DNA of 61,323 bases, filler included. It is 5 parts of 5 records of this genome, joined end to end, with 100 filler letters (N's around TTAATTAATTAA, not from the genome) between each part and the next. Parts side by side here need not be neighbours in the genome. Positions count along the whole stretch, not along the records: positions 11,442 to 26,797 come from DRR723986_4023; 4 more parts are not named here. One strand, 5' to 3'. Positions 11,442 to 26,897 of the stretch are shown piece by piece. The notes beneath the pieces were generated by a model. The model had not been told where the DNA came from, did no database searches, and saw only the letters and a list, made by a program, of their open reading frames with translations. Position 1 is the first letter of the stretch. The number at the start of each line of letters is the position of its first letter. Both the position numbers and the translations under genes were made by a program.

Positions 11442-11831
11442 CATGAAGCCCTGACCGTCATAGTAGTTCACACCAGCAAAGTTCAGACCCAGCTGAGTGT
11501 CGCGGGACATGGTCCAGGTGGTGTTACGGGACAGAACATCAACTTCGCCGGACTGAAGCGCGGTGAAACGCTCTTTTGCGGACAGCGGAGTGTATTTCAC
11601 AGCGGACGCATCGCCGAACACTGCTGCAGCCATAGCGCGGCAGTAGTCAACGTCGATACCGGTCCAGTTCCCCTGAGCATCCGGGTTCGAGAAACCCGGC
11701 AGACCCTGGCTCACGCCACACTGAATGAAGCCCTTTGCCTTGACGTCTTCCAGCGTCGTTGCACCAGCAGCCGTCGTCGCGGCGACTCCCATAGCAGCGC
11801 CGATTACGAGCGGAAGGAATTTATTGGACAT
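11442..11831 (-). CDS. aapJ: General L-amino acid ABC transporter substrate-binding protein (AapJ/BztA), 3' truncated
   Basis: Signal peptide; CGVSQGLPGFS, KERFTALQSGEVDVLSRNTTWT and YYDGQGFM; divergent from metC as in rhizobia. Confidence 0.92.
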
Positions 11832-12301
11832 GGATATGCAGCCTTTATTTGTTACCCATACTTTTATTATGCCGGGTTTGTTCGAAAGACATCTTCTCCG
11901 TCTCTTGTAACCGGACGGATGCCAGCCTTGACGGCTGCTTCCTCCAGATATCTTTCGTCCCACCCAACGGTTCCATACGATGGCATTTAGCTGTTCGGGT
12001 CAAGTACTTGCTGCAGATATCTCGTCAAATTTCTCGAGCTATCCGCCATTTGCCATCAGGTTGGATGCACAAACAGCGAACATGTCTAAATCGAATTCAT
12101 TCAATGCCTAAAAAGGGTTCAATGCATTTAGCGGAGACCTTGCGAAGGTTAACGCTAATCGAAAAATTCTCCACACAAAGACCCGCGCCCAACACGTGAA
12201 ATGGCGGTTGCGACCATGACGCGAATGACTAAAGTGAGCGCTCGGCGCTCGGCAGCTCAATGTCGCGCCGCCTCTCGCAAAACACACACCCAAGAGCCTT
12301 C

Positions 12302-13480
12302 ATGTCTTCCACCAATTCCAAGCCGCCGTTGAGGCAGGATACCAAACTGGCGCATGCAGGGCGCGACCCGCTTGCATTTCACGGTTTCGTCAATCCGCCT
12401 GTCGTGCATGCTTCGACTGTTCTCTACCCCGACACCAAAACCATGGTGACGGGTGCCCAGAGCTATTCCTACGCCCGCAGGGGCAACCCGACCACGGACT
12501 CCCTTGAAGGGGCCATGAAGGAGATCGAAGGGGCAGCAGGGGTCAAGATCGCGAATTCGGGCTTGAATGCCATTGCATTGGCCATCCTGTCCTGCGTGAA
12601 ATCCGGTGACCACATCCTGATTGTCGATACGGCTTATGGACCGACTCGCCATTTCGCCGACACTGTTCTGCCTGGCATCGGGGTTTCCGTGACCTTCTAC
12701 GATCCGAAGATCGGCGCCGACATCAAGTCACTGTTCCAGGAAAACACGACAGCCGTGTTCACCGAGGCACCCGGCTCCCTCACCTTCGAGATGCAGGATG
12801 TTCCGGCGATTGCCGCCGAGGCCCGTGCAATCGGCGCGACCGTTCTGATGGACAATACCTGGGCGAGCCCGATTTACTGCCAGCCACTGTCCATGGGAGT
12901 CGATCTGTCGATCCAGGCGGGCACCAAATATCTTGTCGGACATTCCGACGCCATGCTTGGTACAGTCGCTGCCAGCGAACGTGCCTGGGAAAAACTGGAT
13001 GCGTTCTGTGGTGCCATGGGCTGCCACGTCGCACCGGATGACATCTACCTCGGCCTGCGGGGTCTCAGAACTCTGTCCGTGCGCCTTGAACGGCACCAGC
13101 GCAACACGCTAGCCGTGCTTGGCTGGCTGAAGGACCAGCCCAACATCGAACGCATCCGCTATCCGGGCCTTGAAACGGACCCTGGTCATGCCCTTTGGAA
13201 ACGTGATTTTTCGGGGGCCTCGGGCCTGTGCGCCTTCGACTTCAGTAAAAGCACGACACAGGAACAGGCCTACGCCTTCCTGGATGCGCTCACGCTATAT
13301 GGTCTTGGCTATTCGTGGGGTGGTTTTGAAAGCCTTGCCATTCCGGTTCGCCTCAAGGGCGGCCGCACGGCAACCCCGGTAAACCTGGATCGCCAGTCGG
13401 TTCGCCTCCACATCGGCCTGGAAGACCCGGAAGATCTGATTGCCGATCTGGATCAGGCACTGACGAAGGCATTCGGCTGA
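12302..13480 (+). CDS. metC: Cystathionine beta-lyase
   Basis: VNPPVVHASTV, MDNTWA, PLP lysine in GTKYLVGHSD, GYSWGGFESL and RLHIGLED. Confidence 0.93.
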   Translation: MSSTNSKPPLRQDTKLAHAGRDPLAFHGFVNPPVVHASTVLYPDTKTMVTGAQSYSYARRGNPTTDSLEGAMKEIEGAAGVKIANSGLNAIALAILSCVKSGDHILIVDTAYGPTRHFADTVLPGIGVSVTFYDPKIGADIKSLFQENTTAVFTEAPGSLTFEMQDVPAIAAEARAIGATVLMDNTWASPIYCQPLSMGVDLSIQAGTKYLVGHSDAMLGTVAASERAWEKLDAFCGAMGCHVAPDDIYLGLRGLRTLSVRLERHQRNTLAVLGWLKDQPNIERIRYPGLETDPGHALWKRDFSGASGLCAFDFSKSTTQEQAYAFLDALTLYGLGYSWGGFESLAIPVRLKGGRTATPVNLDRQSVRLHIGLEDPEDLIADLDQALTKAFG

Positions 13481-13508
13481 CAGACTGTCGAGCGAAGGGC
13501 GGAACGGC

Positions 13509-13823
13509 TCAGATCGTAGGGTCGTTCCGCTTTTCCTTGAAGATCAGCCACAGGTTCCGGAAATAGATTAGCAGACCCAGTCCCTGACCGGCGATGAAGA
13601 CCGGATCCTGTCGTTGAATGGCGTAGATCAGCAGCAGCGACCCACCCGCAACGGAAAAGAACCAGAAAGCGACCGGCACGATTGAGCGGCCGACGCGCTC
13701 GGATGCGATCCATTGAATGACGAAGCGCATCATGAACATGGCCTGGGCGAAGAAACCCAGAATGATCCAGAAGTCCAATTGCGCGATGAAAACCGCATGG
13801 ATCCATTCGTATAGAGCGCTCAT
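13509..13823 (-). CDS. Lipid A biosynthesis N-terminal domain (LAB_N) membrane protein
   Basis: RFVIQWIASE, PVAFWFFS, DPVFIAGQ and IYFRNL are typical of the LAB_N family. Confidence 0.9.
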   Translation of the reverse strand: MSALYEWIHAVFIAQLDFWIILGFFAQAMFMMRFVIQWIASERVGRSIVPVAFWFFSVAGGSLLLIYAIQRQDPVFIAGQGLGLLIYFRNLWLIFKEKRNDPTI

Positions 13824-13887
13824 GTCTCAGGTCCAGTCAGTGTTTTTGAAAGGTCGGCGGGCTTCTCCACCCGGATTGGGGCATTAA

Positions 13888-14649
13888 TCAGGTCAGCGGC
13901 CGGACATCCGGAATTTTTTTACGGCGGCGGCGCAGCCACCACACTCCGAACAGATCCAGCACACCGACCAGCGCCCTGTCAAAGATCCCGTATTTAGACG
14001 TTCCATGGCGCCGCTGCCGGTCCTGAACGTCGATATGGGTGACACCGTAACCCTCGCGGATCACGAGTGCGGGCAAGAACCGGTGCCAGCTGTCGAAGTA
14101 TGGCAGTTGCAGGAACACTTCCCGGCGCAGGGCCTTCAGGCCGCAACCGCTGTCGCGAGTGTTATCCCGCAGGATCGCGCCGCGCAGCTTGTTGGCAAAC
14201 TTCGACGCATAGCGCTTGGCCAGGCTGGCCTTGCGGCCAAGCCTTTGCCCGGCGGCAAGAGCAACTGCGGGGCCGGCAGCGTCGAGAGCGTCCAGAAGAG
14301 CCGGAATATAGGCGGGGTTGTTTTCGCCATCGCCGTCTATGGTCGCGACGACGTCGCCCCTCGCATTCAAAAGACCAGTACGCACCGCGCAGCTCTGGCC
14401 ACAAGACTTCTCGTGCCTGACCGGCCGCAGCCAGTCATGGGTTGCCGCGTAATCCTGCAACACGATATCCGTACCGTCGGACGAGCCGTCGTCGATGACG
14501 ATCACCTCGAAACGCCTGCCCTGCAATGCTGCCTCGATTTCATCCAGCAGGATGGGCAGGTTTTCCGCTTCGTCCTTTGCGGGAACCACGACCGTGACAG
14601 CGAGCGCGCCCTTGCTGGCCGCAACAGCTTCCAGATAGCTTTGTGTCAT
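13888..14649 (-). CDS. GT2 polyprenyl-phosphate glycosyltransferase (ArnC/RgtE-like)
   Basis: VVVPAKDE, IDDGSSDGT, IDGDGEN, DSGCGLK, HRFLP and GTSKYG motifs. Confidence 0.88.
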   Translation of the reverse strand: MTQSYLEAVAASKGALAVTVVVPAKDEAENLPILLDEIEAALQGRRFEVIVIDDGSSDGTDIVLQDYAATHDWLRPVRHEKSCGQSCAVRTGLLNARGDVVATIDGDGENNPAYIPALLDALDAAGPAVALAAGQRLGRKASLAKRYASKFANKLRGAILRDNTRDSGCGLKALRREVFLQLPYFDSWHRFLPALVIREGYGVTHIDVQDRQRRHGTSKYGIFDRALVGVLDLFGVWWLRRRRKKIPDVRPLT

Positions 14650-15557
14650 GCGCTTGTCCGTTCTGTCGTGTCTGCCGCAGGGGCCTCGGCCTCCACACGG
14701 TCAGCGCCGCGCTGGCCGCGCAGAACCTGCCAGACAGCCCGCACACAGGCCTTGGCAGACAGGACATTCATGTTGGGTACAATCTTTCCGGAGGAAGACA
14801 GGTGAAAGCCGATCCGCCGCCGGGCCATGGCACGAACCGTGAAAAAGGTGAACGTCATCCCCAATAGCGTGCCTGCGATGACGTCGCTGGGATAATGCGC
14901 CCCGACCATGACGCGGCTGAACGCAAGCCAGAAGCCCGCAACAATGATCAGCCACCGGTAGGCCGGGAAAATAAAGGCCAGCGCAGTTGCAAGTGCAGCG
15001 ACAGTGGTCGAATGACCAGAGGGGAAACTGGTGAAGGTGCCGTCGAAGGCCAGAAAGTCGAAGCGGACCGGACCAACTTCCTCGTAAAGCTTGGGACGCG
15101 CCCGGCCGAGCGACCACTTGAATGCAATGGCCAGAAGCCCCGTCGCGGCGACTGAATAAAAGATGAAGGCCGCATAAGTGAACACTGCGCCGATTGCCAT
15201 GCGCAGGCGGAATGCGTAGCGCCCGGCATCCAGCGCCAGCAGAAACAAGCAGCATAGACCGGTAGAAACGAGGATCCAGTCGGCCTTGCCGATATCGGTA
15301 AAGGTTCGGAAGGCGGCCCGGTATTCGCCCGGGAGAGAGCGCAGCCACGGATAGGTCGGAACATCGAACGCAACGACTGCAATGCCAACCGTCAATAAGA
15401 GGACTGCAAGGATATCCTGCGGCCGCTGCCCGGGAGGAAGCGGATCCCTGTTGTGGCGCGCACGTTCCCTGCGACCGGAAAACAGTATTGCAGCCCGCCG
15501 AGAATTCCCGCGCATGCGCGCCAGAACATGCCAGACAAATTTACTGCTGTTGCTCAT
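14646..15557 (-). CDS. lpxE: PAP2-family phosphatase, lipid A 1-phosphatase-like
   Basis: All three PAP2 motifs: KWSLGRARP, SFPSGH and SRVMVGAHYPSDV; operon context with ArnT-like and GT2 genes. Confidence 0.75.
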   Translation of the reverse strand: MSNSSKFVWHVLARMRGNSRRAAILFSGRRERARHNRDPLPPGQRPQDILAVLLLTVGIAVVAFDVPTYPWLRSLPGEYRAAFRTFTDIGKADWILVSTGLCCLFLLALDAGRYAFRLRMAIGAVFTYAAFIFYSVAATGLLAIAFKWSLGRARPKLYEEVGPVRFDFLAFDGTFTSFPSGHSTTVAALATALAFIFPAYRWLIIVAGFWLAFSRVMVGAHYPSDVIAGTLLGMTFTFFTVRAMARRRIGFHLSSSGKIVPNMNVLSAKACVRAVWQVLRGQRGADRVEAEAPAADTTERTSA

Positions 15558-17358
15558 TGCCGTCTTCTGAAACCGTCGTCGGCACGGACTTCTCATAAAG
15601 CCCGATATCGACATCGTCCCCGCCGTTGATATTGAGGCCGTCTACCCTTTTTACAGCCTCCGGCACAAGACCAATCTCCTTTGCGGCGGCCAAAAACGCG
15701 GCTTCTTCCCGGCTTTCTATTGCCGCGATACGGCAGGTAGCTGGATTCGCGGCTTCATCGGCAGCAAGAAATGCGGCGGCATCCTGCGCGGAAACGATCT
15801 TTGTCGTCGTGCCTTCCAGGAATATGAAACTGGGTTCGTGAAAGCCGGTGGTCACGACCAGACGGTTCGACTTGTCTGCACAACCGGGGATTTCGTCCAT
15901 GGCCGCGACAAGGCGCGGACTGACCCAGATCGGCGTAAGAGCTGGGCCGACAAAGCCCCAAAACCCGATGCTGACGCAGATCGCTGTCAGACAGATGGCG
16001 GGGAAAGCATAGAGTGCCGGTCCTCGCAGAACCCGGGATGCTGCTGCAATCGCAAAAACAGCTCCCACTGCAAGCAGAACGGCTCCGGGAGGTGACGGCC
16101 AGACACCCAGGGCAAAAGGACCGGCAAACGCGGCGACGGCCAACCCCAACGCAGGCACCGCCAGCAGCACTGCCGCTACCCAACGCAGCCACGTTCTCGT
16201 CGTGGCGCCAGCCCCCTCCATCAGCGCAGCAGCAACAGGTAGCGCGAGCGCAGGCAGCAGCGGCATTGTGTAATGCGGAAGCTTCGTTGCAACCAGTTCG
16301 AACACGATCCAGCTTGGGACGAACCAGGCAACGGCAAACGTCACCAGCGGACTTTTTCGTTCATGCCAGATGAGCGGCAAGGCAATCAGGAAGAATGCAG
16401 GCAAAGGCCAGAATATGCCGAACATCGCCCCGAGATGGGTAAGCGGGGGTGCTCCATGACCTTCCTGCCCCTGCCCGACCTTGCCAAGGAGGTCCTTGCC
16501 GATGGCTTCAGTAAAGAACGTTCCGTCCGTCGCGATCCAGATTGCCACAAACCAGGGTGAGACGAGCAGCACGAACCACAGCAGACCCGCGATTGGCGCC
16601 GTTCCCTTGAACCATGCAGCTTTCCGTTTCATGGCCATGAGGCCAACAACCGTAAGGCCAATCACCATGGGTCCAACCGGCCCCTTGATTAGGACACTGC
16701 CCGCAAGTGCAGTCCAGAACAGGAACCCAAGACCCCATAGCCGTTTGTCCGGATCCTTCAACCAGATCCGCGCCAGGGCACCTTGCGCTATTATGATCAT
16801 TGCAAACAGCGCGGCATCAGTTTTTGCCAGTCGCGCCTCGACGCCGACAATGATTGCCAGCGCCACGAAACCTGCGGCCAACAGCGCACCGGCAGGCCCC
16901 ATGAATGCCCGTGCGAGCCAGAAGGTTGCCAGAACGCTGATTATCGAGGCTATGACGGAAGGCAGTCGATAAGCCCAAAGCGGCGCGTCCGCCCCCTGCC
17001 CTGTCAGCTTTACGGCAGCTGCCTGAAGCCAATAGATCCCGACTGGCTTTTTGTGACGTGCCTGATCCTGAAAACGAATGTCGATGTAATCGTTCGTTTC
17101 CAGCATCTGCTTGGTTGCCTGGGTAAAGCGCGGCTCGTCCCTGTCCAGCGGTGGTACCGTCCATTGACCTGGTACGAACAAGGCAAGCGACAGGAGCAGC
17201 AGAAGGAACGGGGCAGTGATGTCGTGGCCGAAGATATGCAACCAGACCGGCTTCCGAACCGGGGCAGCCGACGGGCTGTCCACGTTGTCCTTGCGTTCGG
17301 AATTCCCGGCTGCCTTGCCTGCCGCCTCGGGCTTCTGATCGTCGCGCGTGTCCGACAT
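15541..17358 (-). CDS. ArnT/GT83-family lipid A glycosyltransferase
   Basis: DRDEPRF, HKKPVGIYW, YRLPS, EARLAKTD, LIKGP and TKLPHY motifs; many TM helices. Start taken at MSDTRD. Confidence 0.9.
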   Translation of the reverse strand: MSDTRDDQKPEAAGKAAGNSERKDNVDSPSAAPVRKPVWLHIFGHDITAPFLLLLLSLALFVPGQWTVPPLDRDEPRFTQATKQMLETNDYIDIRFQDQARHKKPVGIYWLQAAAVKLTGQGADAPLWAYRLPSVIASIISVLATFWLARAFMGPAGALLAAGFVALAIIVGVEARLAKTDAALFAMIIIAQGALARIWLKDPDKRLWGLGFLFWTALAGSVLIKGPVGPMVIGLTVVGLMAMKRKAAWFKGTAPIAGLLWFVLLVSPWFVAIWIATDGTFFTEAIGKDLLGKVGQGQEGHGAPPLTHLGAMFGIFWPLPAFFLIALPLIWHERKSPLVTFAVAWFVPSWIVFELVATKLPHYTMPLLPALALPVAAALMEGAGATTRTWLRWVAAVLLAVPALGLAVAAFAGPFALGVWPSPPGAVLLAVGAVFAIAAASRVLRGPALYAFPAICLTAICVSIGFWGFVGPALTPIWVSPRLVAAMDEIPGCADKSNRLVVTTGFHEPSFIFLEGTTTKIVSAQDAAAFLAADEAANPATCRIAAIESREEAAFLAAAKEIGLVPEAVKRVDGLNINGGDDVDIGLYEKSVPTTVSEDGNEQQQ

Positions 17359-17552
17359 CAACTTTCTTGTCCAGTTCCTGCGTCCGGTGTCCTGCGCCCG
17401 GTGTCCTGCGTCTGGGCGGTCGCCCCTGCCCGCCCGTTTCTGAACGCTTCTCCTACATGAGCTTTTCAAAAAGGGAAACTAGTGCTTGCCCTCTTCGAAC
17501 GCACGGTTATCGTCCGGGCAGATGATCCACCTGACGAGTCACAAGGTTTTCC

Positions 17553-18389
17553 ATGACATTGATTGCTCATATGACGGACCTGCATTTGCGTCCGCGAGGT
17601 TTGCCCTGCTATCGCGTTTCGGACACCAATATGCTTGCCGAGCGCGCGATCAAGTCGCTGCAGAGTCTCACCCCGAAACCTGATGCTCTCGTTATAACCG
17701 GCGATATAACCGACAGAAACGATCCAAGGGAATACGCACTCGCCCGCTCCATCCTCTCGCGCGTCGACATGCCTGTCTATCTTGTGCCCGGGAACCACGA
17801 CGGCACAGAAGTCATGCGCCGCGAACTCGGCAGCTTTCCGGGTCTTTCAGGCAGCCTTGAAGACAAGATCTGCTATACGGCGGACATTGGCGACATCCGC
17901 CTGATTGCGCTGGACACCCATATTCCGGGTGATCCGCGTGGTCGGCTCGGTCAGGCACAGCTTGACTGGCTCGACAGCCGGCTGCGCGAAAGTGCCAAGA
18001 CAACGCTGATCGCCCTCCACCACCCGCCTGCACTTTCCGGGATCCGACACATGGACGACATCGGACTTGTGGATGCCGATGCGCTTGCAGAAGTTGTTTC
18101 GCCACACCGGCATGTTGCGCGCTTCCTGTGCGGTCATCTTCACCGTCCGATCATCGCGAGCTTTGCCGGAAAGGTGATGACGCTTGCTCCCAGCACCGGT
18201 CACCAGGTCGTCCTCGACCTGACGGAAGACGGCCCTGCCATGTTCAACTTCGAACCCGCAGCCTATTTTCTCCACTATCATTCGCCGAAAACCGGAGTGG
18301 TGTCTCATATGGCCTACGTGGAAGCGTATGCTGGCCCGTACCATTTCTTCGCCGATGAAGGCGTCGTCTGGCCGGGAGATGAAACCTGA
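17553..18389 (+). CDS. Calcineurin-like metallophosphoesterase (CpdA/Icc/GpdQ-like)
   Basis: TDLH, ITGDI, PGNHD, LHHPP and CGHLH metal-binding motifs. Confidence 0.9.
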   Translation: MTLIAHMTDLHLRPRGLPCYRVSDTNMLAERAIKSLQSLTPKPDALVITGDITDRNDPREYALARSILSRVDMPVYLVPGNHDGTEVMRRELGSFPGLSGSLEDKICYTADIGDIRLIALDTHIPGDPRGRLGQAQLDWLDSRLRESAKTTLIALHHPPALSGIRHMDDIGLVDADALAEVVSPHRHVARFLCGHLHRPIIASFAGKVMTLAPSTGHQVVLDLTEDGPAMFNFEPAAYFLHYHSPKTGVVSHMAYVEAYAGPYHFFADEGVVWPGDET

Positions 18390-18937
18390 TGTCCGTAATC
18401 CCCCTGCCCAAACGCTTCTTGGCGCTGTTGCTGCTTGGCCTTTTCGCGGCCTCCCTCAGCGCCTGCGGCGCCTTGCCGGGAAAAAGCGACCTTGAAGACA
18501 AGACAGTGCTTACAGACCAGCCGATCGACAAGGCACAGATGCTGTCGATGATAAACGCCTACCGGCAGCAAAAAGGCTTGCCCGCTTTGCGCCACGACCC
18601 GGAACTGGATGTCGTTTCCCAAAAGATGGCACGCCATATCGCCGAGCGCGACAGTATGGACACCTGGGCTCACAGTGCCTTCGGTCTGTCACAACGGCTC
18701 GACAAGGCAGGATACGCAAATTACGCAGGCGCGGAAAACCTGGGTGCGGGATACGCTGATCTGGCAGCAGCCTTCCGTGGCTGGCAAGGCTCAGAAGGCC
18801 ACAACAAGAACCTTCTCAACCCCTACGTGACACGGGTAGGCATTGCCAGAACAAACCGCAACAATGGCAAATGGCGCAATTTCTGGGTGATGACACTGTC
18901 CCGCCCTTATGCGGACGGCCGACCGACCGTCCGATAA
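18389..18937 (+). CDS. CAP/SCP domain lipoprotein
   Basis: Lipobox LSAC; INAYR, AENLGAG and WQGSEGHNKNLL motifs; 1-nt overlap with the upstream gene. Confidence 0.9.
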   Translation: MSVIPLPKRFLALLLLGLFAASLSACGALPGKSDLEDKTVLTDQPIDKAQMLSMINAYRQQKGLPALRHDPELDVVSQKMARHIAERDSMDTWAHSAFGLSQRLDKAGYANYAGAENLGAGYADLAAAFRGWQGSEGHNKNLLNPYVTRVGIARTNRNNGKWRNFWVMTLSRPYADGRPTVR

Positions 18938-18948
18938 CAAGACACCTG

Positions 18949-18974
18949 GAAAAAGGGCGGAGCCAAGCTCCGCC
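18949..18974 (-). terminator. Intrinsic terminator downstream of the YcaO gene
   Basis: 8-bp stem GGCGGAGC/GCTCCGCC (18956-18974) followed on the minus strand by CTTTTT. Confidence 0.6.
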
Positions 18975-19088
18975 AAAAGGCTTCTTCCAGAGATCGAATG
19001 ACCCAGTTGTCATCCGGACGCCTCGCAAACAAAACATGAATGCACGGCTCATATTTTATTAAGGCCGGCGCATCAGCCTGTCAATCGT

Positions 19089-20525
19089 TCAAAAGGGAAA
19101 TAGTCGGGCGGCAAATTCGGCTTCGGACGCGGGAATGTCTCGCAAACCACGCTCTACAACCCCGTCGAACAACCTTTTTTTGCCGAACCTTGGCTCCCAA
19201 CTGCAAAGCTCGGGGGACAACAGCTTGATGCAGGGAATTGCAAGGTCTTGGCGGGTCGCATCAAACTCCCAAAGGCTGATCTCGCGGTCGAAACAACCCT
19301 GAAGCAGAGTTTCAAAAGTCGAGGTCTTCTCCAGAACCTCAGGACGGGCGGCAACCGCACCCCGAAAAGGCAGATCCTCGAATATCACGCGCTCTCTGGC
19401 ATACGCCAGCTGCCTGGGTAGCGACCTCAGCGCTTTTTTTGTGCCGTGACTGGCGGGATAGGATTTGTCCATCAGAGACAGAGCATTTTCCGATTGCAAC
19501 ATTTCCTGAATTGCACTGGTGCAGGCCTGTGCGGTGTCCCAACCGGCGGATGATCCAAACGCACCCCCCCGGCCGTAAACGTCATGAGAGACACAAATCA
19601 CCACCTGGACCGGCAGGTCCGTGTCGACGTGCAAGAGCTCCCATTCCCGCGGCTGATCATCGAGATATTGGACCAGATCAGGAGGGAGCATTTCCCTCAC
19701 ATAGCCTTCAGGTAGAGAAGTTATCCCCAGGCGGTTGTACCAGGCCTGCGCAACTGCATCACGCTCTACAAGCTCAAGAAGCGCGCGCGCGCGCGCTCCC
19801 TCAAGGTCATGCCAGACAGCGCATCCTACGCTTGAAGCAAAGGGCAAACGTAAGCCCGTAACGTCATCGGCTTCGTTAAACAAAATTCCCAAACTAAGGC
19901 ACTGCGCCTCTTCATCAGTCTGCAGATTTCGCAACCGGACACGCCTGGCTGAAAGAGATGACCAGTCTGAAGAGTTGACGCCCGAAAGATCTCGTCCGAG
20001 ACGGAGCCTGCCGAGAGCGACACTTGCCTGACCTTCACTCAATCCAAGCAATCGGCCGAAATCTACCTGTGGTTGTTTTTTGTCGTAAGTGAACACCCTA
20101 TTGTCACTAATCCCGATACTACAAAGGGTTAGCCTTTCGGAAAGCTCTCCAATACAACTAATAGCTGCAATTGATGCGATATCCCCCTGTCCACCGGCAG
20201 GAATTGGTGCCCCCACAGCTGGTACTTCTTTTGCATCAGTTTCAGGCGACTTGAGTAACCCGGTGCAAAAATGCACCGGGCATCCGGGGCGTGTCATCGG
20301 GACCAGTCTTGGGGAGAATGACGAAAGCAGCTTCAGGAAAAGACGAAGGTCCGGCTCCAGCAAGCGCACACGATCTCCCTCAACGCCCGGCTCCACCGCT
20401 ATCAGGCCCAAACGCGACAGGTCCGCAAGTACGTCGTCCGCAAATCCACTTTCAACGATCATAGAAGAGACACCGCCGCCAACAGTGAGGATGCGGAACG
20501 GCTGCTTATGTTTTGATATGGCCAT
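19089..20525 (-). CDS. Stand-alone YcaO-family protein (RiPP cyclodehydratase-like)
   Basis: ATP-binding motifs SCIGELSER and SSVGCA...ALLELVERDAVAQAWY; C-terminus PELCSWEPRFGKKRLF...FPF resembles TOMM D-protein tails. Confidence 0.88.
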   Translation of the reverse strand: MAISKHKQPFRILTVGGGVSSMIVESGFADDVLADLSRLGLIAVEPGVEGDRVRLLEPDLRLFLKLLSSFSPRLVPMTRPGCPVHFCTGLLKSPETDAKEVPAVGAPIPAGGQGDIASIAAISCIGELSERLTLCSIGISDNRVFTYDKKQPQVDFGRLLGLSEGQASVALGRLRLGRDLSGVNSSDWSSLSARRVRLRNLQTDEEAQCLSLGILFNEADDVTGLRLPFASSVGCAVWHDLEGARARALLELVERDAVAQAWYNRLGITSLPEGYVREMLPPDLVQYLDDQPREWELLHVDTDLPVQVVICVSHDVYGRGGAFGSSAGWDTAQACTSAIQEMLQSENALSLMDKSYPASHGTKKALRSLPRQLAYARERVIFEDLPFRGAVAARPEVLEKTSTFETLLQGCFDREISLWEFDATRQDLAIPCIKLLSPELCSWEPRFGKKRLFDGVVERGLRDIPASEAEFAARLFPF

Positions 20526-20629
20526 TTACTTCGCCTCACCCTGCAATTGCACACAACGTAGATTAACAAAACTGCCATTGAGCGAGTTCATTCCCTCGTT
20601 CTACATTCTATTCGAAAGCAGTCGATCAG

Positions 20630-20662
20630 TAGTAAACAGTCTCAATACATAACTATTTACTA
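20630..20662. promoter_or_regulatory. Candidate operator (inverted repeat) in the divergent ycaO/precursor promoter region
   Basis: TAGTAAACAGT-N11-ACTATTTACTA, 10 of 11 positions complementary, in an AT-rich spacer. Confidence 0.4.
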
Positions 20663-20746
20663 AAGTTTGACCGAATTTCAAAAAGCCAGGTGACCATCCC
20701 ACCACCAGGCAGGACACATTGCAACTCAACCTATCGGAGGCTCATA

Positions 20747-21037
20747 ATGCACGCTGACACAACTTCCCGGACTGAACTGGAAATTGGCGCGAAACTTGGC
20801 GCGATCATTCAGAACGCCACAGCACGTGAGCGGCTGGTTGCCAACCCGGCTGAAGTCCTGGCTGAAGTTGGCATCAACTCCGATGCCGCAATCTTCGCCG
20901 ACACTGCTGACCTCGTCCACCTCATCATCCCGGCAGAAATCGATGCAGCGCGCGTTGCTGCTGGCGATGAGAAATATTTCGAAGAACTCGGTAAAGCAGC
21001 TCTCGGCAATTGCTTTTACGAAGACGTCCCGGAGTAA
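20747..21037 (+). CDS. NHLP-like putative RiPP precursor (96 aa) with C-terminal tail CFYEDVPE
   Basis: GGAGG RBS at 20736-20740; IIQNATARERLVANPAEVLAEVGI...DTADLVHLIIP follows the nitrile-hydratase-leader pattern; single Cys near the C-terminus; adjacent to YcaO. Confidence 0.72.
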   Translation: MHADTTSRTELEIGAKLGAIIQNATARERLVANPAEVLAEVGINSDAAIFADTADLVHLIIPAEIDAARVAAGDEKYFEELGKAALGNCFYEDVPE

Positions 21038-21064
21038 GCCGGTAAGGTCGTCACGATACGTCTC

Positions 21065-21101
21065 CGGCCTTCTTGCTTCGCGCAGGAAGGCCGTCGTTCT
21101 T
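21065..21101 (+). terminator. Intercistronic stem-loop (weak terminator or mRNA stabiliser) after the precursor gene
   Basis: 12-bp stem CGGCCTTCTTGC/GCAGGAAGGCCG (one G-U pair), loop TTCGC, imperfect U-tract TCGTTCTTT. Confidence 0.55.
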
Positions 21102-21117
21102 TCCGATTGGGGTAACG

Positions 21118-21405
21118 ATGGCCAGATTTCCCTACTACCAGAGCAACGTCAAAGACCTTGGCAAACTCATCGCCAGGGCAGCGACCGACGAAAACTTCCG
21201 ACGCGAGCTCGAGCGAGACCCGTTAGCCGCAATTTCCAATATTGGCCTGCCGAAAGAGACGGTGGCGCTCATGCGGTTCAAGATCGTCGATCAGAAAAAC
21301 AATCCGAACGCCGTAGCTCTGCCTTTTCGTCTGAACGAAGAAAAGCTGAACAGTGCTAATGAGGAGTATCTGAAAGCTCTGTCTTCGACCTTCGCGCTAA
21401 ATTGA
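21118..21405 (+). CDS. Second NHLP-like protein (95 aa) without a Cys tail
   Basis: KLIARAATDENFRRELERDPLAAISNIGLP closely follows the NHLP consensus; C-terminal 26 aa align without gaps to the first paralog. Confidence 0.75.
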   Translation: MARFPYYQSNVKDLGKLIARAATDENFRRELERDPLAAISNIGLPKETVALMRFKIVDQKNNPNAVALPFRLNEEKLNSANEEYLKALSSTFALN

Positions 21406-23391
21406 ACCGGAACCGTCGAACAGGAACCGCTGCACCAAGGCTGCGCCCTTGTCGAAATCGTTTCGCACTTTCTCGTTCTGGAAGAAATTGATCTTCTTTC
21501 TCCAGCTCTTGGGGTCCTGCGCAAGCTCGGGAGAGTTTTTCAGCAAGGCAGCACGGTTTTCACCAAAGCGCTCAAGCGTTTGCATGGCTTCTTCTTCTCG
21601 CCCGGCACAGACCAAAGCGGCCACACGAGTGGTCAAGCCACTGATACCAACCCCGGCGCCCCGCTCTATCTGCTTTATCGCGCTGTCGTAATCTTCCGCG
21701 GCAAAATAGATGTTCGCCAGGTACTCGTAGAAAACGCGGGGAACAAACGCGAAGAGTGAGAAAGCTCTTTCAGCCGTAACGCGTGCTTCGTTGATGTCGC
21801 CGGAAAAAGCCAGGCCCTCTGCGACGGACATCAGGTTGGCCGGATCAGCCGAGCTCAGACGGCCGGCGTTCTGGAATGCTCTTCGCGCCTCGTCAGGCAT
21901 ATTGGACAGAATAAGTGCCCAACCATAAACACGCTGATTTACCGCCTGCCAGGGATCGAGCCTGATCGATTTTTCGGCAAGGTTCAGGAGATTGTTTTCT
22001 TCACCGGAAAACGTCTTATCCATGAGCGGGAAATGCAATTCCTGCTTCATGATGATTGACGCTTTGCCTGCATACGTCATCGAGAACGAACGATTTGTGC
22101 GCTCCAGATCATCCAACAAGCGCATCGCTTTTTCGTCGGATTGCGGCGTGAAATCCCACAACAGGGCTTCCGCCTGACACCAACGGGCGAAAACGGATGT
22201 TTTCGCGGGGTTTCTTAGTCTGCTGGTCGCGTGGTTATGGATGCGGCTCACAATCTGGCTCGCAGCCGGCACCAGACCGTCCCAGTATTGCAGGTCAATT
22301 ATCTCGTTAAAGACAATCTGACCGTTGCCCCTGTCCTCGAACTGGACAACCACTTTGCCCGATCGCTCGTCATGCCGGAACCTGAGCAGATAACAGCCAA
22401 GTTCGTGGCCTTCCATCAAGGTTGGACGTGGCACGTTTTCTTCGCCGAAATACTCAGATTCAAACAGCTCGAACGACCGAAACGAGGAAAGGCCGGAAAC
22501 GATTTCCTCTCGCAGATGGATCGCGTCGTTCAGCCCTTTTTTCAACAGGGATGACGAGACAATGGAAATTTCTGGCAAGGGAACGAAGTCATCGTAATTT
22601 GGCAGGAACCCTCGGTTTCCGCCGCTGTTGCCATCACTTCTACCAACCGGCACCGGAGAAGGTTCGACCTCCGATGCGATCAGCAGCTTCCGCGTCTCCT
22701 CATCGGGCTCAGCATCCAGATGGAGCCGCATTTCCCTTTCGCAAGACCTGAGCTGCTGTTCGGCGCGCTCGGGCTGGCCCAGATTCATGTAGAGACGAAT
22801 AAGAACGCGATGGGCCGCTTCAAACGCGGGATCGAGCTTCAGGACAAAACGCGCCCCGGCCTCTGCCTGCACACCCCCGTCTTCCGTGGATATCCTGTTC
22901 AGATGCTTGAAGGCGGCGCTGATGAGTTCTGAACGCACCCGTTCACGCTCGACCGTCAGCCACTCGGAAAATTCAGAATCGATATCGTCGTAGCCGGTCA
23001 GGAACTCGCCGCGCCACAGTTCCCCCGCCTTGCGGAAATCAGCTGCCTGCCCACGTTCCAGAAGCGTATTCATGGCCATGAGATCAGACGCAAACGCCGA
23101 TGGGTCGAGTTGAATGTGACCTGGCGCTGAGCGCACTACATCGATGCCTGCCGTTTCTTCGGCGCTCTTCAATTGGCGCAATGCCTGACGCAAGGATTGC
23201 ATTGCCTTGTGGCGGTCTGTCCCGCTCCAAAGCAAATCCGCCAGTGCTTCCCGGGGCGACGCCATACCGCTCATGCGGCTCAGATAGCCCATGATCGCCA
23301 GAGCCTTGCGGGTTTTGACCGCCACAGGTTCCTGGTCGCTATCAAGGAGCAAAGGCCGCCCAAGGCATGCAAAGCAGGACGCGATTGCCAT
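21397..23391 (-). CDS. SARP-like transcriptional regulator (wHTH + BTAD + TPR-like C-terminus)
   Basis: TRKALAIMGYL, REALADLLW, SLRQALRQLK, LWRGEFL, DPAFEAAHRVLIRLY and LDAEPDEET are BTAD hallmarks; helical repeat C-terminus; GGGGA RBS before ATG 23391. Confidence 0.87.
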   Translation of the reverse strand: MAIASCFACLGRPLLLDSDQEPVAVKTRKALAIMGYLSRMSGMASPREALADLLWSGTDRHKAMQSLRQALRQLKSAEETAGIDVVRSAPGHIQLDPSAFASDLMAMNTLLERGQAADFRKAGELWRGEFLTGYDDIDSEFSEWLTVERERVRSELISAAFKHLNRISTEDGGVQAEAGARFVLKLDPAFEAAHRVLIRLYMNLGQPERAEQQLRSCEREMRLHLDAEPDEETRKLLIASEVEPSPVPVGRSDGNSGGNRGFLPNYDDFVPLPEISIVSSSLLKKGLNDAIHLREEIVSGLSSFRSFELFESEYFGEENVPRPTLMEGHELGCYLLRFRHDERSGKVVVQFEDRGNGQIVFNEIIDLQYWDGLVPAASQIVSRIHNHATSRLRNPAKTSVFARWCQAEALLWDFTPQSDEKAMRLLDDLERTNRSFSMTYAGKASIIMKQELHFPLMDKTFSGEENNLLNLAEKSIRLDPWQAVNQRVYGWALILSNMPDEARRAFQNAGRLSSADPANLMSVAEGLAFSGDINEARVTAERAFSLFAFVPRVFYEYLANIYFAAEDYDSAIKQIERGAGVGISGLTTRVAALVCAGREEEAMQTLERFGENRAALLKNSPELAQDPKSWRKKINFFQNEKVRNDFDKGAALVQRFLFDGSGSI

Positions 23392-23571
23392 CAATTCCCC
23401 GTAATTGAAATGCACGCTTCAGCCGTCGCCTTCGCGCAACCGCGAATATCACGCAACCTGAAACACAACAGCACCTTATCACGCTCATTTCACGCTGCAA
23501 CAGCATGCTTTAATCGGATGGTCACAGCAGCGACGCTGCAATCGGCAAATCAAATACTGGTGGGTAGTAAA

Positions 23572-23826
23572 ATGTCTAAGACCGTTAGCAAATCGGACCG
23601 CACTGAACTCGAGCAGGAGCCTGCAATCGAGGCGATCAAGCGCATGATCCGCTACACGAAAAAAGAATCGGACAAGGACGGCCGTACGTTCTGTTCCTAT
23701 TTCCTAGATATGGCTCTTCAGTCCCTGGAAGATGGTTCCGAGGACGTGGACATGATCCTCAAAACAAAGATCACGCCGCTCATGGTTGGCCAGAAGGTGG
23801 AATCGGGAAAGTCCGAGACGCTCTGA
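23572..23826 (+). CDS. Small hypothetical protein (84 aa) divergent from the BTAD regulator
   Basis: ATG 23572; helical pattern with YFLDMA; followed by a terminator. Confidence 0.6.
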   Translation: MSKTVSKSDRTELEQEPAIEAIKRMIRYTKKESDKDGRTFCSYFLDMALQSLEDGSEDVDMILKTKITPLMVGQKVESGKSETL

Positions 23827-23853
23827 CCTTCAGGCGAATCGCGGTCTGGAAAC

Positions 23854-23898
23854 ACCGCCGTGCTCCTATATTGCAGGGGCCGGCGGTTTTTGTTTTTT
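23854..23898 (+). terminator. Intrinsic terminator
   Basis: ACCGCCG...CGGCGGT stem followed by TTTTGTTTTTT. Confidence 0.6.
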
Positions 23899-24018
23899 GC
23901 AGGCTTTTTCCAAGTACCCGACTTGAACGTCCAGTTTAGGACATCTGCACGGCAGGAAGCCTTTCCACGCATGGTAGAGGCATCGAAGCTCAGGACTTAT
24001 TCAAAAAAATCAGGGAGA

Positions 24019-24095
24019 TGGCGACTCCGGCAGGATTCGAACCTGCGACCATTCGCTTAGAAGGCGAGTGCTCTATCCAGCTGAGCTACGGAGCC
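24019..24095 (-). tRNA. tRNA-Arg(UCU)
   Basis: GGCTCCGTAGCTCAGCTGGATAGAGCA...CT-TCT-AA...GGTTCGAATCC...CGCCA; 77 nt with encoded CCA. Confidence 0.97.
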
Positions 24096-24331
24096 AATTT
24101 CTCAGGAACGCAAACCGTTCCCAGATGAGACTATCAGGCAGTATCTCTGAGGCCTGCCAGACGTTCATGCAAACTTGAATCGAGACCAAACGTCCGGAGG
24201 CAACCCGATCCGGCGATCGCCTCCACTGCCCTAATGCGTCAAAAACCCGGCTCGTGTCGATTCGAAATCGGCGCTTTCAACAGACAATCCGATCTCTTAC
24301 CGAACAGGTCAGAGGAGCCGAACGTTCTTGT

Positions 24332-24637
24332 TCAGTGGGTCCAGGGCGCAGACCGGTTGAATTTGAAATTGTCCGCATAGGCAGACCCGCGCACTTTGCG
24401 TTCCTGGGCTTTCTCAACCCTGTGCAGAATGCCATGGCGCTTCGCATATGCGACAGCTTCTTCTGAAGTCTCGAAATAGAGCCGGATTTGCTGCTTCATG
24501 TCGGAAGACGACGTGTAGCCCATCAAAGGTTCGACGGACTTGGCGACCTCCGGCTCGTAATCCAGCACCCATCTCTGGGTTTTCGCCTTGCCTGACTGCA
24601 TGGCGGTTTTCGCCGGACGGTAGATACGCGCAACCAT
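24332..24637 (-). CDS. ETC complex I subunit (NDUFS4-like)
   Basis: ARIYRPAKTAMQSG, EPLMGYTSSSD and YADNF motifs. Confidence 0.93.
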   Translation of the reverse strand: MVARIYRPAKTAMQSGKAKTQRWVLDYEPEVAKSVEPLMGYTSSSDMKQQIRLYFETSEEAVAYAKRHGILHRVEKAQERKVRGSAYADNFKFNRSAPWTH

Positions 24638-24985
24638 GTGACAGTGCCCTCAAGTCTGAATATGTGAGATGCAATTCCTTACAGCAGCTTTTTCCCGCCT
24701 TTGCCGCCGGTGTCAACACCGATATTGGCCGCAACCCGCAATCTTCGGTTCGGCGACGACTCATTTAACAGCACAAGTATGTATTAACGGTGTTGGTGGA
24801 GAGGCGATTTATGACATTCACGTAACATGACATGGAGGCGCAACTCATGCTATTAACTACCCTAACGTGAACTTGTCTGGAAGACGCCGATTTTCGGAAC
24901 GCAGTGCAGGTTCAAAAAATACAGAATCGCAGGGCCGGACAGCCTGAAAGGGCCGATCCAAAGATCAAAACGATAAGGCTTTGAC

Positions 24986-25234
24986 ATGCATTACGAATTT
25001 CTGAAAAGACTGGAAGGCTATGTTCCGGAACATGTTCGGCCGGTTACCAGAGCGCCGAAAAAAATTGCGCCGGTCGAACTGAAAGCGGCGATCGACGACG
25101 CCAATCTCACTGAAATGTGGGACATGATCCTGACGCTGGACTATTCGGTTTCCGATCCCACCGATCTGTCACCGGAAAAACGCGACGAATTCCTGAATGT
25201 CATGTCGCTGTTGTTGAAAGCCTTCGACCGGTAG
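24986..25234 (+). CDS. Hypothetical protein (82 aa)
   Basis: Clean ATG ORF with protein-like composition and no overlap with neighbours; no family recognised. Confidence 0.6.
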   Translation: MHYEFLKRLEGYVPEHVRPVTRAPKKIAPVELKAAIDDANLTEMWDMILTLDYSVSDPTDLSPEKRDEFLNVMSLLLKAFDR

Positions 25235-25321
25235 AAATGGTTATTGGCAAACGGCCAAACATGTGCGGTGTCCCTGGTCGATTTTTACCGGATGGAACAA
25301 ATCAAAACATGAGAGAGGACT

Positions 25322-25828
25322 GTGCTAACACGCCCTGATACTCATTTTTCGGAACTCGGCACACAGGCCATTGAAAAAGGGCTTGCCGACCCGGCTGTGT
25401 CTGCGTTCTACGACAGCATCATGTCGACCGATGCGGTTCAGATCCAGCAATGCCTGAAACCGTTCCTGCCTCATTTGAGCCTTTGCTCGGACAAGATGCC
25501 CGGCAACGCTCCCCCTCCGATATTCTATGTCGGCAAGGAAAGTGGGCAGCGACACTTGTTCGGCGAAGACTGGGCAAGCCCGGCGACACCCGCCTGCGGT
25601 CTGCGCACACCTGATCCGGACCTGGAGAAGGCTTCGGCGGAAGGTTATCGCAAGGCTTTGGAAGGCACGCCTTATTACGGCTACGCCCACACGAAAATTC
25701 AGGTCAATGGCGAACTCTATGAAGTTGCGTTCGAGCGGTTGATCGTCGCCGTGCGACCTTCGTTGCAATCCGATCTTCGCTTCTGCGCCTACCTGGGCGT
25801 CATTCAGGATCTTCAGCGGACGTCCTAA
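25322..25828 (+). CDS. Hypothetical protein, possible PAS-like (PAS_5-type) domain
   Basis: GAGGA RBS before GTG; FLPHLSL...FYVG...FERLIV pattern resembles stand-alone alphaproteobacterial PAS proteins. Confidence 0.5.
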   Translation: MLTRPDTHFSELGTQAIEKGLADPAVSAFYDSIMSTDAVQIQQCLKPFLPHLSLCSDKMPGNAPPPIFYVGKESGQRHLFGEDWASPATPACGLRTPDPDLEKASAEGYRKALEGTPYYGYAHTKIQVNGELYEVAFERLIVAVRPSLQSDLRFCAYLGVIQDLQRTS

Positions 25829-26519
25829 GGATAAGTTTTACAAGGCCGTGTAGATCTCCTCTGGTGGCATAGACCAGCCAGTCATCCGGCCTGATATGTC
25901 CAGGCGCAATCTCCCAATGCGTTCCGCGTGGCACGAACCTGCGGTAACCGACCCGGATGCCAAAGCCTTTTTCTGCGCTTTTTGCGGCCATCAGGCCATA
26001 GAGATAGTCCGGCGACCACTTCAATAGTGAGAGCAGAAACCCCAACTGGGTCAAAGGCTCGGCAAGGCCCTGCCCCCGGATGTCCCGTCTCAGCCAGAGA
26101 TTGCCGTGATAGACGATACGCCCGCGCATGAAATAGGCGTCATGCGCGTGCTCTGTCCCGAACCGAACCTGAGGGTTTGGATCGACAAAGATCCTGCGTT
26201 GCTGCTGATGCCAGTGCTCGGCAAGGCTCCTGTCTTTCAGGTCTTCCACCTTTGCAGCTTGCACAGACACGACGTTACCATGGTTGTTGACGGCCCCTAC
26301 CCAGAACGCGGTCGTCCCGTGCAGGTCGAAAAACCGCGGTGAAAAATCTTCCATCAGGTATTTGTCTTCGGTGCTCCGGACGGTTTTTTCGAAAAGCGCA
26401 AAATCCGCGCTTTCCTTCAGAGAAAGCCCGGCCTTTTCAATTCTGGACTGCAGTACGGCTATCGCCGCCGATACATCCAGCGTCGCCTGGTCGTCAGGAT
26501 CCGGTATCATCAGCCCCAT
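25800..26519 (-). CDS. Hypothetical protein, possible GNAT/acyltransferase-like fold
   Basis: YHGNLWLRRDIRGQGLA resembles GNAT motif A; start uncertain (26510-26636). Confidence 0.55.
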   Translation of the reverse strand: MGLMIPDPDDQATLDVSAAIAVLQSRIEKAGLSLKESADFALFEKTVRSTEDKYLMEDFSPRFFDLHGTTAFWVGAVNNHGNVVSVQAAKVEDLKDRSLAEHWHQQQRRIFVDPNPQVRFGTEHAHDAYFMRGRIVYHGNLWLRRDIRGQGLAEPLTQLGFLLSLLKWSPDYLYGLMAAKSAEKGFGIRVGYRRFVPRGTHWEIAPGHIRPDDWLVYATRGDLHGLVKLILRTSAEDPE

Positions 26520-26740
26520 CCGGCGCGGCCTGCATGCCGTCGCAAGCGGCGTCACTCCCACAGGCATTGGAAACGCCCGTCTGACCAGTCTGTTATGCGG
26601 CGATAAGTTGCACAAGACGCCTGCGTAGCTTGGCACTAGTTATCCCGGCCTTTAGGCACGGAACCACAGCAAGCGCATGGATTTGCATTGCAAAGCCCAG
26701 CGAACGCGTACCGCATCACATCGATTATCAGGAGAACGAA

Positions 26741-26797
<57 letters not shown>

Positions 26798-26897
26798 NNN
26801 NNNNNNNNNNNNNNNNNNNNNNNNNNNNNNNNNNNNNNNNNTTAATTAATTAANNNNNNNNNNNNNNNNNNNNNNNNNNNNNNNNNNNNNNNNNNNN
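26798..26897. other. Artificial contig spacer
   Basis: N-run with TTAATTAATTAA. Confidence 0.98.

Follow-up and report, generated by a model that had tools for sequence, protein, structure and literature searches.

A conserved pair of NHLP-related genes in Stappiaceae, encoding a cysteine-bearing precursor and a cysteine-less paralogue next to a minimal YcaO

The window, a stretch of 61,323 nucleotides made of five joined parts, carries two short tandem genes of the NHLP clan beside a gene for a YcaO enzyme, within the part that derives from record DRR723986_4023 (positions 11,442 to 26,797). The first of the pair, P1 (20747..21037, plus strand; codons 20747-21034 and a stop), encodes a precursor of 96 residues that ends in ..LGN-CFYEDVPE; the probable modification site, N88-C89, and the tail FYEDVPE occupy 21008..21034 (plus strand), with C89 encoded at 21011-21013. 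After a spacer of 80 bases, in which a G+C-rich stem-loop of 12 pairs is followed by a T-rich run (21065..21093, plus strand; a terminator-like match), comes P2 (21118..21405, plus strand; codons 21118-21402 and a stop), a Cys-less paralogue of 95 residues ending in ..FALN. Divergent from P1 lies a minimal YcaO of Pfam family PF02624 (19089..20525, minus strand), 478 residues long as called, the true start of which may be a downstream Met. Convergent with P2, and sharing its last 9 bases, is a SARP-like regulator of 672 residues with BTAD and TPR domains (21397..23415, minus strand). The closest named database proteins come from Labrenzia, Roseibium and Stappia, and the window is therefore assigned, by this protein similarity, to an alphaproteobacterium of the family Stappiaceae, a marine bacterium of the Roseibium type.

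The original prediction held that P2 is a leader-only paralogue that ends exactly where the core of P1 begins. Both genes have the coordinates and sequences first given for them. The asymmetry between P1 and P2 is confirmed, and the interpretation first given to it is partly supported.

The 26 residues that follow a proline in each protein (P1 63-88, P2 70-95) do align without gaps, with four identities (E, Y, L and N). Shuffling gave at least four identities in 17,990 of 100,000 trials, so that this number is within chance; the ungapped BLOSUM62 score of 18 for these stretches was reached in 80 of 100,000. A BLASTP comparison of P1 with P2 gave no alignment at E<=100. With no such alignment, and with identities within chance, the two sequences alone cannot establish paralogy. 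The predicted paralogy is supported by comparison of profiles. Aligned with hhalign, the orthologue profiles of P1 and P2 matched with a probability of 89% (E 2.3e-6), residues 13-84 of P1 lying on residues 14-91 of P2 in the same register, and a search of 1.84 billion representative proteins with a P1 profile retrieved the P2-like proteins P0098 and P0112 at whole-library E values of 4e-5 and 4e-4. Single-copy relatives from outside the Stappiaceae provide a second route: P1 matched them with 99.4% probability (E 2.3e-21), Cys on Cys, and P2 with 98.8% (E 4.8e-17), gapless over residues 1-92. The invariant Cys of the family is residue 96 in these relatives, and P2, with its 95 residues, stops one short of it. 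The proline is invariant in all 53 aligned family members. As judged from these profiles and from the substitution rates given below, P1 and P2 are distant homologues and real genes under purifying selection.

P1 has 66 database orthologues, and all the named ones are from Roseibium, Labrenzia or Stappia. The invariance of the Cys, proposed as a check on the prediction, was found in all 32 aligned database orthologues and in all 30 genomic loci; Y91 is likewise invariant among the 32 and P95 nearly so, and 29 of the 30 loci encode exactly one Cys per P1. The protein is conserved over its whole length, with a mean column identity of 71%, and keeps the canonical ..DT....H..IP motif as well as the invariant L81 and L86, placed three residues ahead of the Cys. 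It is strongly acidic, with a net charge of -6 to -14 in 30 of 30 loci. An AlphaFold2 model of P1 has a predicted local distance difference test (pLDDT) score of 67.8, and the tail, residues 88-96, is predicted to be disordered (pLDDT <50). There is no Gly-Gly cleavage motif, as had been stated: the sequence is ..LGxC, and the position ahead of the Cys is filled in the 30 loci by N (11), S (7), A (7), I (2), T, G or F (one each). An intein-like cleavage at N88|C89, driven by the Asn, was weighed and rejected, since the 30 P1s include only 11 with Asn at this position. In one locus, L027 (genome G800), the YcaO match is partial (model positions 84-298, E 1.7e-39), and the P1 there has Phe in place of Tyr two residues past the Cys, unlike the other 29; the module may be decaying in that genome.

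P2 gave 14 database matches, all of 95 residues, in which the MARFP start, the block V66-N73 and N95 are invariant; that the matches are fewer than those of P1 is an effect of the word-index search and not a sign that P2 is absent. Among the 30 loci every P2 and no P1 begins with MARFP. P2 carries an invariant ..VALPFRLN block of its own and is without the canonical ..DT....H motif that P1 and the single-copy relatives retain. The C-x-Y tail is missing throughout, as expected from the prediction, both from the 14 database matches and from the P2s of all 30 loci. A Cys occurs within the last 15 residues in two of the 30, the closest relatives of which have none there. A search for P2 relatives found no longer or fused forms (168-2000 residues), which is weak evidence. 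The ratio of nonsynonymous to synonymous substitution rates (dN/dS), computed against the copies in the window with dS near saturation for most pairs, had a median of 0.13 for P1 (n=15) and 0.19 for P2 (n=9); for the closest pairs the values were 0.18 and 0.035, respectively. Net charges of P2 range from -1 to +7. The median charges are -11 for P1, +2 for P2 and -4.5 for the single-copy relatives, so that P1 and P2 are shifted in opposite directions relative to the latter.

P1, P2 and the single-copy relatives all stay below the cut-off of every Pfam and NCBIfam model, and P1 has no match at all in either collection. P2 has sub-threshold matches to the NHLP clan, namely NF038399 (31.1 of 40 bits, 1.8e-7), TIGR04509 (29.5 of 34 bits, 5.8e-7) and TIGR03793 (25.4 bits, E 9.4e-6, with a cut-off of 50.9 bits), in addition to weak matches to NHase_alpha. 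The single-copy relatives score 17-29 bits against TIGR03793.

The exact correspondence between the end of P2 and the start of the Cys tail of P1 proved to be narrower than first thought. It holds for 13 of the 30 orthologous pairs, those in which P2 has 95 residues; in the others P2 is 92 (two loci) or 98-106 residues long (15 loci), with short variable endings. The last residue of P2 is N in 21 loci, H in 5 and S in 4, and the final Asn that P1 and P2 were thought to share does not hold up, since the residue before the Cys of P1 is N in only 11 of 30. With P2 so variable in length and residue 88 of P1 in identity, both the exact coincidence and the shared Asn belong to the clade of the window only. 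The general rule, read from the aligned orthologues and loci, is that P1 always has the Cys and P2 never has a Cys-x-aromatic tail.

The pair and the enzyme travel together. All five of the genomic loci reached via YcaO hold both P1 and P2, and P1, P2 and the divergent YcaO occur together in the 30 of 30 loci examined by script. Among 132 Stappiaceae genomes the adjacent pair was found in 75, every one of which has the YcaO orthologue; 55 have neither, and the remaining two have YcaO matches that are cut by a contig end or fragmentary. P2 was never lost separately from P1 or YcaO. The regulator scores 38.2 bits against BTAD (PF03704), above the Pfam gathering score of 22.1, and matches several TPR families; it adjoins the pair in the first five loci examined and is syntenic in five further genera-level loci. 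In L002, a Roseibium aggregatum record, the frame of the regulator is broken (291 residues from stop to stop, against about 670), and P1, P2 and YcaO are intact. About 15 kb around the module, with genes for glycosyltransferases, PAP2, a metallophosphoesterase, a CAP-domain protein and an NDUFS4-like product, is syntenic across divergent family members, from which it follows that the module is chromosomal and vertically inherited. No protease, exporter, dehydrogenase or immunity gene was found among the genes adjoining it. The locus is thus a conserved chromosomal module of four genes, consisting of a minimal YcaO, putatively of the azoline type, P1, the Cys-less P2 and a SARP-like BTAD-TPR regulator.

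Relatives outside the family were sought with a P2 profile at class level (401 genomes) and with a family profile at order level (401 genomes). The class-level search returned only G001 and two genomes with classical multi-copy NHLP arrays; these arrays, with their Gly-Gly motifs and an ABC transporter, are unrelated to P1 and P2. Arrays of this classical type, elsewhere in the genome, also account for extra weak matches in some Stappiaceae (9-13 per genome); L016 (G364) and several Stappiaceae have separate arrays of 4-8 Gly-Gly NHLP genes, which in L016 stand beside an ABC transporter.

The order-level search yielded strong matches in 11 genomes outside the Stappiaceae, ten with one and one with two on separate contigs. 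Each of these 12 loci has a single member of 97-101 residues, which starts with MAR(I/F) or MPR(L) and ends in ..G-C followed by 1-6 residues. A homologous YcaO (open frames of about 410-500 residues) is divergently adjacent in 10 of the 12, the other two loci stopping at contig ends, and 11 of the 12 also have, as a neighbour, a homologue of the BTAD-TPR regulator that aligns along its entire length with about 25% identity. All 13 of the single-copy relatives compared have the Cys. As read from the 12 single-precursor loci, the basic module consists of the regulator, one Cys-bearing precursor and the minimal YcaO. A relative of 179 residues, P0102, has three tandem ..YL..LG......AC.. repeats, like a multi-core precursor.

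A maximum-likelihood tree was calculated from 85 family members and 103 columns; many of its forks are unresolved, and its root, which rests on two long rows of classical NHLPs as outgroup, is not secure. The P1 sequences form a clade (support 99/94), as do those of P2 (100/100), which a long branch of 1.46 changes per column sets apart. The clade of P2 falls inside a group of single-copy proteins with a Cys and a MARF start (98/95 support), which indicates that P2 descended from true precursors and lost the Cys. That P2 is no local truncation, a condition on which the prediction depended, is borne out by the MARFP start in 30 of 30 loci, by purifying selection and by this fully supported clade among Cys-bearing relatives. 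Its place in the tree marks P2 as a one-time precursor now without the Cys, and as neither a recent local truncation nor the immediate duplicate of P1. Judged from the tree and the loci together, the Stappiaceae version of a module of the Rhizobiales has gained a conserved, Cys-less precursor paralogue.

The YcaO scores 94.7 bits against PF02624 over residues 112-440, above the gathering score of 25.7. Its nearest solved chains are TruD (4bs9, 4.6e-10), LynD (4v1t) and MusD (7u58), with which it aligns from residue 231 to its last residue, 478, through the ..ELVERD.. block. Only the YcaO domain was detected, and the E1-like/RRE half of about 300 residues found in cyanobactin heterocyclases is missing. 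An AlphaFold2 model of the enzyme built from 6 sequences was poor (pLDDT 51.7) and was set aside, for the N-terminal 110 residues as well. Neither an E1-like/RRE partner nor a flavin mononucleotide-dependent dehydrogenase gene is adjacent, the search for E1-like partners being limited to the neighbourhood of the module. In genome G827, which served as a stand-in because its P1 and P2 tails are identical to those of the window, there is no match to the SagB-type dehydrogenase (TIGR03605). The only TfuA of that genome stands beside a second YcaO about 166 kb away (G827:C1:5746863-5748391), the two forming a thioamidation-type pair; the YcaO of the module has no adjacent TfuA.

The adjacent YcaO probably modifies the cysteine tail of P1. 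The cyanobactin heterocyclases as nearest structures, the SagD type (TIGR03604) as best NCBIfam family, the single invariant Cys of P1 and its predicted disordered tail all speak for this. So do L81 and L86: according to the relevant passages of PMC12455567, LynD recognises PatE, and MprC the NHLP MprE7, through an LxxxxL motif just upstream of the core. The most economical chemistry would be one ATP-dependent cyclodehydration, in which Cys89 and the carbonyl of residue 88 form a thiazoline. The core was first described as a Cys-led octapeptide, and this description does not stand: an azoline uses the carbonyl of the residue before the Cys, so the core cannot start at the Cys, and cleavage at LGN|C is chemically inconsistent. 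Two observations agree with this, namely that P0102 repeats the whole upstream unit together with the Cys three times, and that some relatives have only one residue after the Cys. The proposal that P2 replaces a missing C protein is also unlikely, because 10 of the 12 loci outside the Stappiaceae have the same minimal YcaO with a single Cys precursor and no P2.

A strong G+C-rich stem-loop between P1 and P2 recurs at the same position, with differing sequence, in nearly all orthologous loci (L021-L050): 22 of the 30 have a fold z-score under -2, with a median of -2.96. It may end or stabilise a transcript of P1 only. Stem-loops in other peptide operons often give more precursor than downstream products. 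Contigs from RNA libraries (four runs from four studies) span P1 and P2 in one piece, which speaks for presence in RNA libraries and not for levels, the P1/P2 ratio or a single transcript. In two studies the RNA contigs are interrupted at 20572-20650, between the YcaO gene and P1, which hints at best weakly that a transcript ends there.

An asymmetric NHLP pair had already been noted in 2010. As described in the pertinent parts of Haft, Basu and Mitchell 2010 (PMC2887384), the NHLP-Burk genes are tandem TIGR03795 genes beside cyclodehydratase-docking fusions in Burkholderiales, one member ending in Cys or Cys-Cys, with fused forms in some genera and no Gly-Gly; they are also treated in passages of Cox et al. 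2015 (PMC4603692). A full-text literature search found no experimental characterisation of them. As in NHLP-Burk, the YcaO of the present system adjoins two tandem NHLP-related genes, each about 100 codons long, one product has a C-terminal Cys, and Gly-Gly is lacking; a tandem pair with the Cys in P1 only was found in 30 of 30 loci. It differs in several respects. The Cys of P1 lies 8 residues from the end and not at the end, and TIGR03795 (cut-off 41 bits) matches neither P1 nor P2 at E<=0.01; the model has no match in G001, which carries the P1/P2 system, whereas a true member in G675 scores 124 bits. The YcaO has 478 residues and no E1-like half, that is, no TIGR03882-type fusion, in contrast to the 880-residue fusion enzyme of L020, which stands beside a fused NHLP-Burk protein of 261 residues ending in Cys. 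No fused form of P1 and P2 was found, the BTAD-TPR regulator belongs to the module, the system is alphaproteobacterial, and its Cys-less member can be traced to Cys-bearing single precursors. The P1/P2 system is thus not a member of TIGR03795.

The system of MprE1-10 with MprC and MprD shares with P1 a long folded leader of the NHLP type, LxxxxL before the Cys, and an azoline expected from an ATP-dependent YcaO (PMC12455567, PMC10858898, in the parts concerned). MprC, however, has an RRE domain and there is a partner oxidase; the Mpr precursors have Gly-Gly junctions and variable cores, and no Cys-less paralogue is described in the passages of these two papers drawn on here. In single-chain proteins with two NHLP domains (P0093, P0099, P0105-P0111, P0119-P0121), two modules and one core form a fused analogue of P1 plus P2, but these are classical NHLPs with Gly-Gly junctions and long cores.

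TruD, LynD and MusD have about 780 residues and bind the leader with an N-terminal E1-like/RRE half that the YcaO of the module does not have. LynD can reportedly be activated by a leader peptide supplied in trans or fused, a result attributed to Koehnke et al. (2015) that would be the engineered counterpart of the idea of an in-trans activator. The stand-alone YcaOs of bottromycin are likewise said, after Franz et al. (2017) and Schwalen et al. (2017), to form a single thiazoline at one Cys with residues following and without an E1/RRE partner. That system differs from P1/P2 in its unrelated precursor family, its follower peptide and its large gene clusters, and is not known to include a Cys-less paralogous partner. 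Literature searches, which covered papers without their supplementary cluster lists, found no natural coreless or leader-only precursor paralogue under the terms used, and no relevant report linking YcaO to Roseibium or Labrenzia turned up.

Of the possible roles of P2, the one that we favour, tentatively and at a little less than an even chance, is that of a positive partner acting in trans within the four-gene module. The YcaO would use ATP to activate the amide between residue 88 and Cys-89, and the thiol of the Cys would close a single thiazoline in the flexible, acidic tail of P1. With no dehydrogenase present the ring would stay a thiazoline, and with no protease or exporter encoded nearby the product may remain a small modified protein. 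P2 would bind P1, the YcaO dimer or both, and present or tune P1, without being a substitute for the missing E1/RRE protein. The strict co-retention of P2 with P1 and YcaO, the complementary ancestral features of the two proteins (MARFP in P2, the Cys tail in P1) and their opposite charges favour such a positive partner in trans.

Several points weigh against this. At 10 of the 12 loci the single-precursor relatives have the same kind of YcaO and no P2, so a P2-like partner is not generally required. MprE7, the only NHLP studied structurally, is a monomer in solution by small-angle X-ray scattering according to the part of PMC10858898 that reports on it, and dimerisation of NHLP folds is thus without precedent. 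The model of P1, with its pLDDT of 67.8, had no match in the PDB at E<=0.001, and no NHLP-like structure was found. The best NCBIfam family of the YcaO, TIGR03604 (SagD family), is reached with 72.1 bits, below the cut-off of 219.25; it is also the best-scoring family for the YcaO of a single-precursor relative (141.4 bits, likewise below the cut-off). The hairpin suggests that the cell may make less P2 than P1, and a 1:1 scaffold would not agree well with that. The C-terminal length of P2 varies, so the mechanism probably does not depend on exactly where the protein ends. Finally, we infer both the binding of P1 by P2 and the chemistry on P1 from the sequences.

In a bolder form of the proposal, which is possible but doubtful, P2 would be a leader that acts in trans, for which there would be no earlier natural example. 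Having lost the modifiable residue, this precursor paralogue would have been retained throughout the family as an obligatory partner of opposite charge that docks P1 on a YcaO without recognition domain, and the module would put out a small protein tagged with a thiazoline, to be read by the adjacent TPR regulator, and not an exported antibiotic.

P2 could instead be a decoy that occupies the docking site of YcaO unmodified, and so limits or times the modification of P1 or buffers the enzyme. Descent from Cys-bearing substrates, with the family fold and N-terminus retained, agrees with this, single-precursor systems that work without P2 make it look like an added layer of control, and the hairpin after P1 could set a separate level of expression. 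A pure competitor, however, would be expected to retain the docking surface, and P2 has lost the ..DT....H motif and evolved an invariant block of its own; its charge, opposite to that of P1, fits binding to P1 better than mimicry of it. We regard the decoy as unlikely.

It is unlikely, too, that P1 and P2 are the two subunits of one small protein and not a leader-core precursor system, with the YcaO permanently modifying the tail of P1 and the complex having an intracellular role, perhaps that of a ligand or partner for the TPR regulator. Vertical inheritance in a conserved chromosomal neighbourhood across genera would suit such a role, as would the conservation of P1 over its whole length, the lack of an adjacent protease, exporter or immunity gene, and the conservation of the regulator with the module across the order. 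Relatives with one residue after the Cys, furthermore, leave too little sequence for a product that is released with the Cys at its start. On the other hand, the three cassettes of P0102 are repeated as in multi-core natural-product precursors, processing genes may be located elsewhere in the genome, and an interaction of the regulator with P1 or P2 is hypothetical.

That P2 is itself modified, at Ser89, at its C-terminal Asn, His or Ser or at its N-terminus, to give a two-component product together with P1, appears improbable. Two-peptide products were proposed for NHLP-Burk pairs by Haft et al. in the passage concerned (PMC2887384), and the restriction of the last residue of P2 to N, H or S would agree. 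The original prediction had named a possible SST site in P2, and only its serine at position 89 is conserved, in 12 of 13 P2s of 95 residues; positions 90 and 91 vary, so the site as such is not borne out, and among 15 aligned database orthologues 5 have Gly in place of S89. P2 moreover has no conserved Cys, its length varies from 92 to 106 residues, and the module encodes one modifying enzyme only. A decaying truncated duplicate without function, for which the missing Cys tail might speak, has next to no chance of being correct: the conservation data, namely the low dN/dS (median 0.19, and 0.035 against the closest relative), the invariant blocks and intact MARFP start in 30 of 30 loci, and the presence of P2 at all of these loci and with P1 and YcaO across the family, exclude the status of a dead gene.

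Minimal YcaOs without a recognition partner are common, their function is mostly obscure, and how they find their substrate is an open question. The Rhizobiales relatives with a single precursor and no P2, set against the Stappiaceae with P2 and otherwise the same three genes, form a natural comparison by which the role of the Cys-less copy becomes directly testable. P1 and P2 are therefore a natural test case for the function of a precursor copy without a target, and offer a handle on the long-uncharacterised asymmetric pairs of the NHLP-Burk type. The family is uncurated, and its vertical inheritance with a conserved regulator of its own is unusual for peptide natural-product genes.

An open frame of 83 residues at 23575-23826 (plus strand) is divergent from the regulator and without a Pfam match; five divergent loci of the Stappiaceae have it in the corresponding place, with 44-82% identity. 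Downstream of the module there is a tRNA-Arg (tct) gene at 24019-24095 (minus strand). At about 26740-26850 there is a masked run of N near 26.8 kb, and the adjoining translation resembles the reverse strand of another tRNA.

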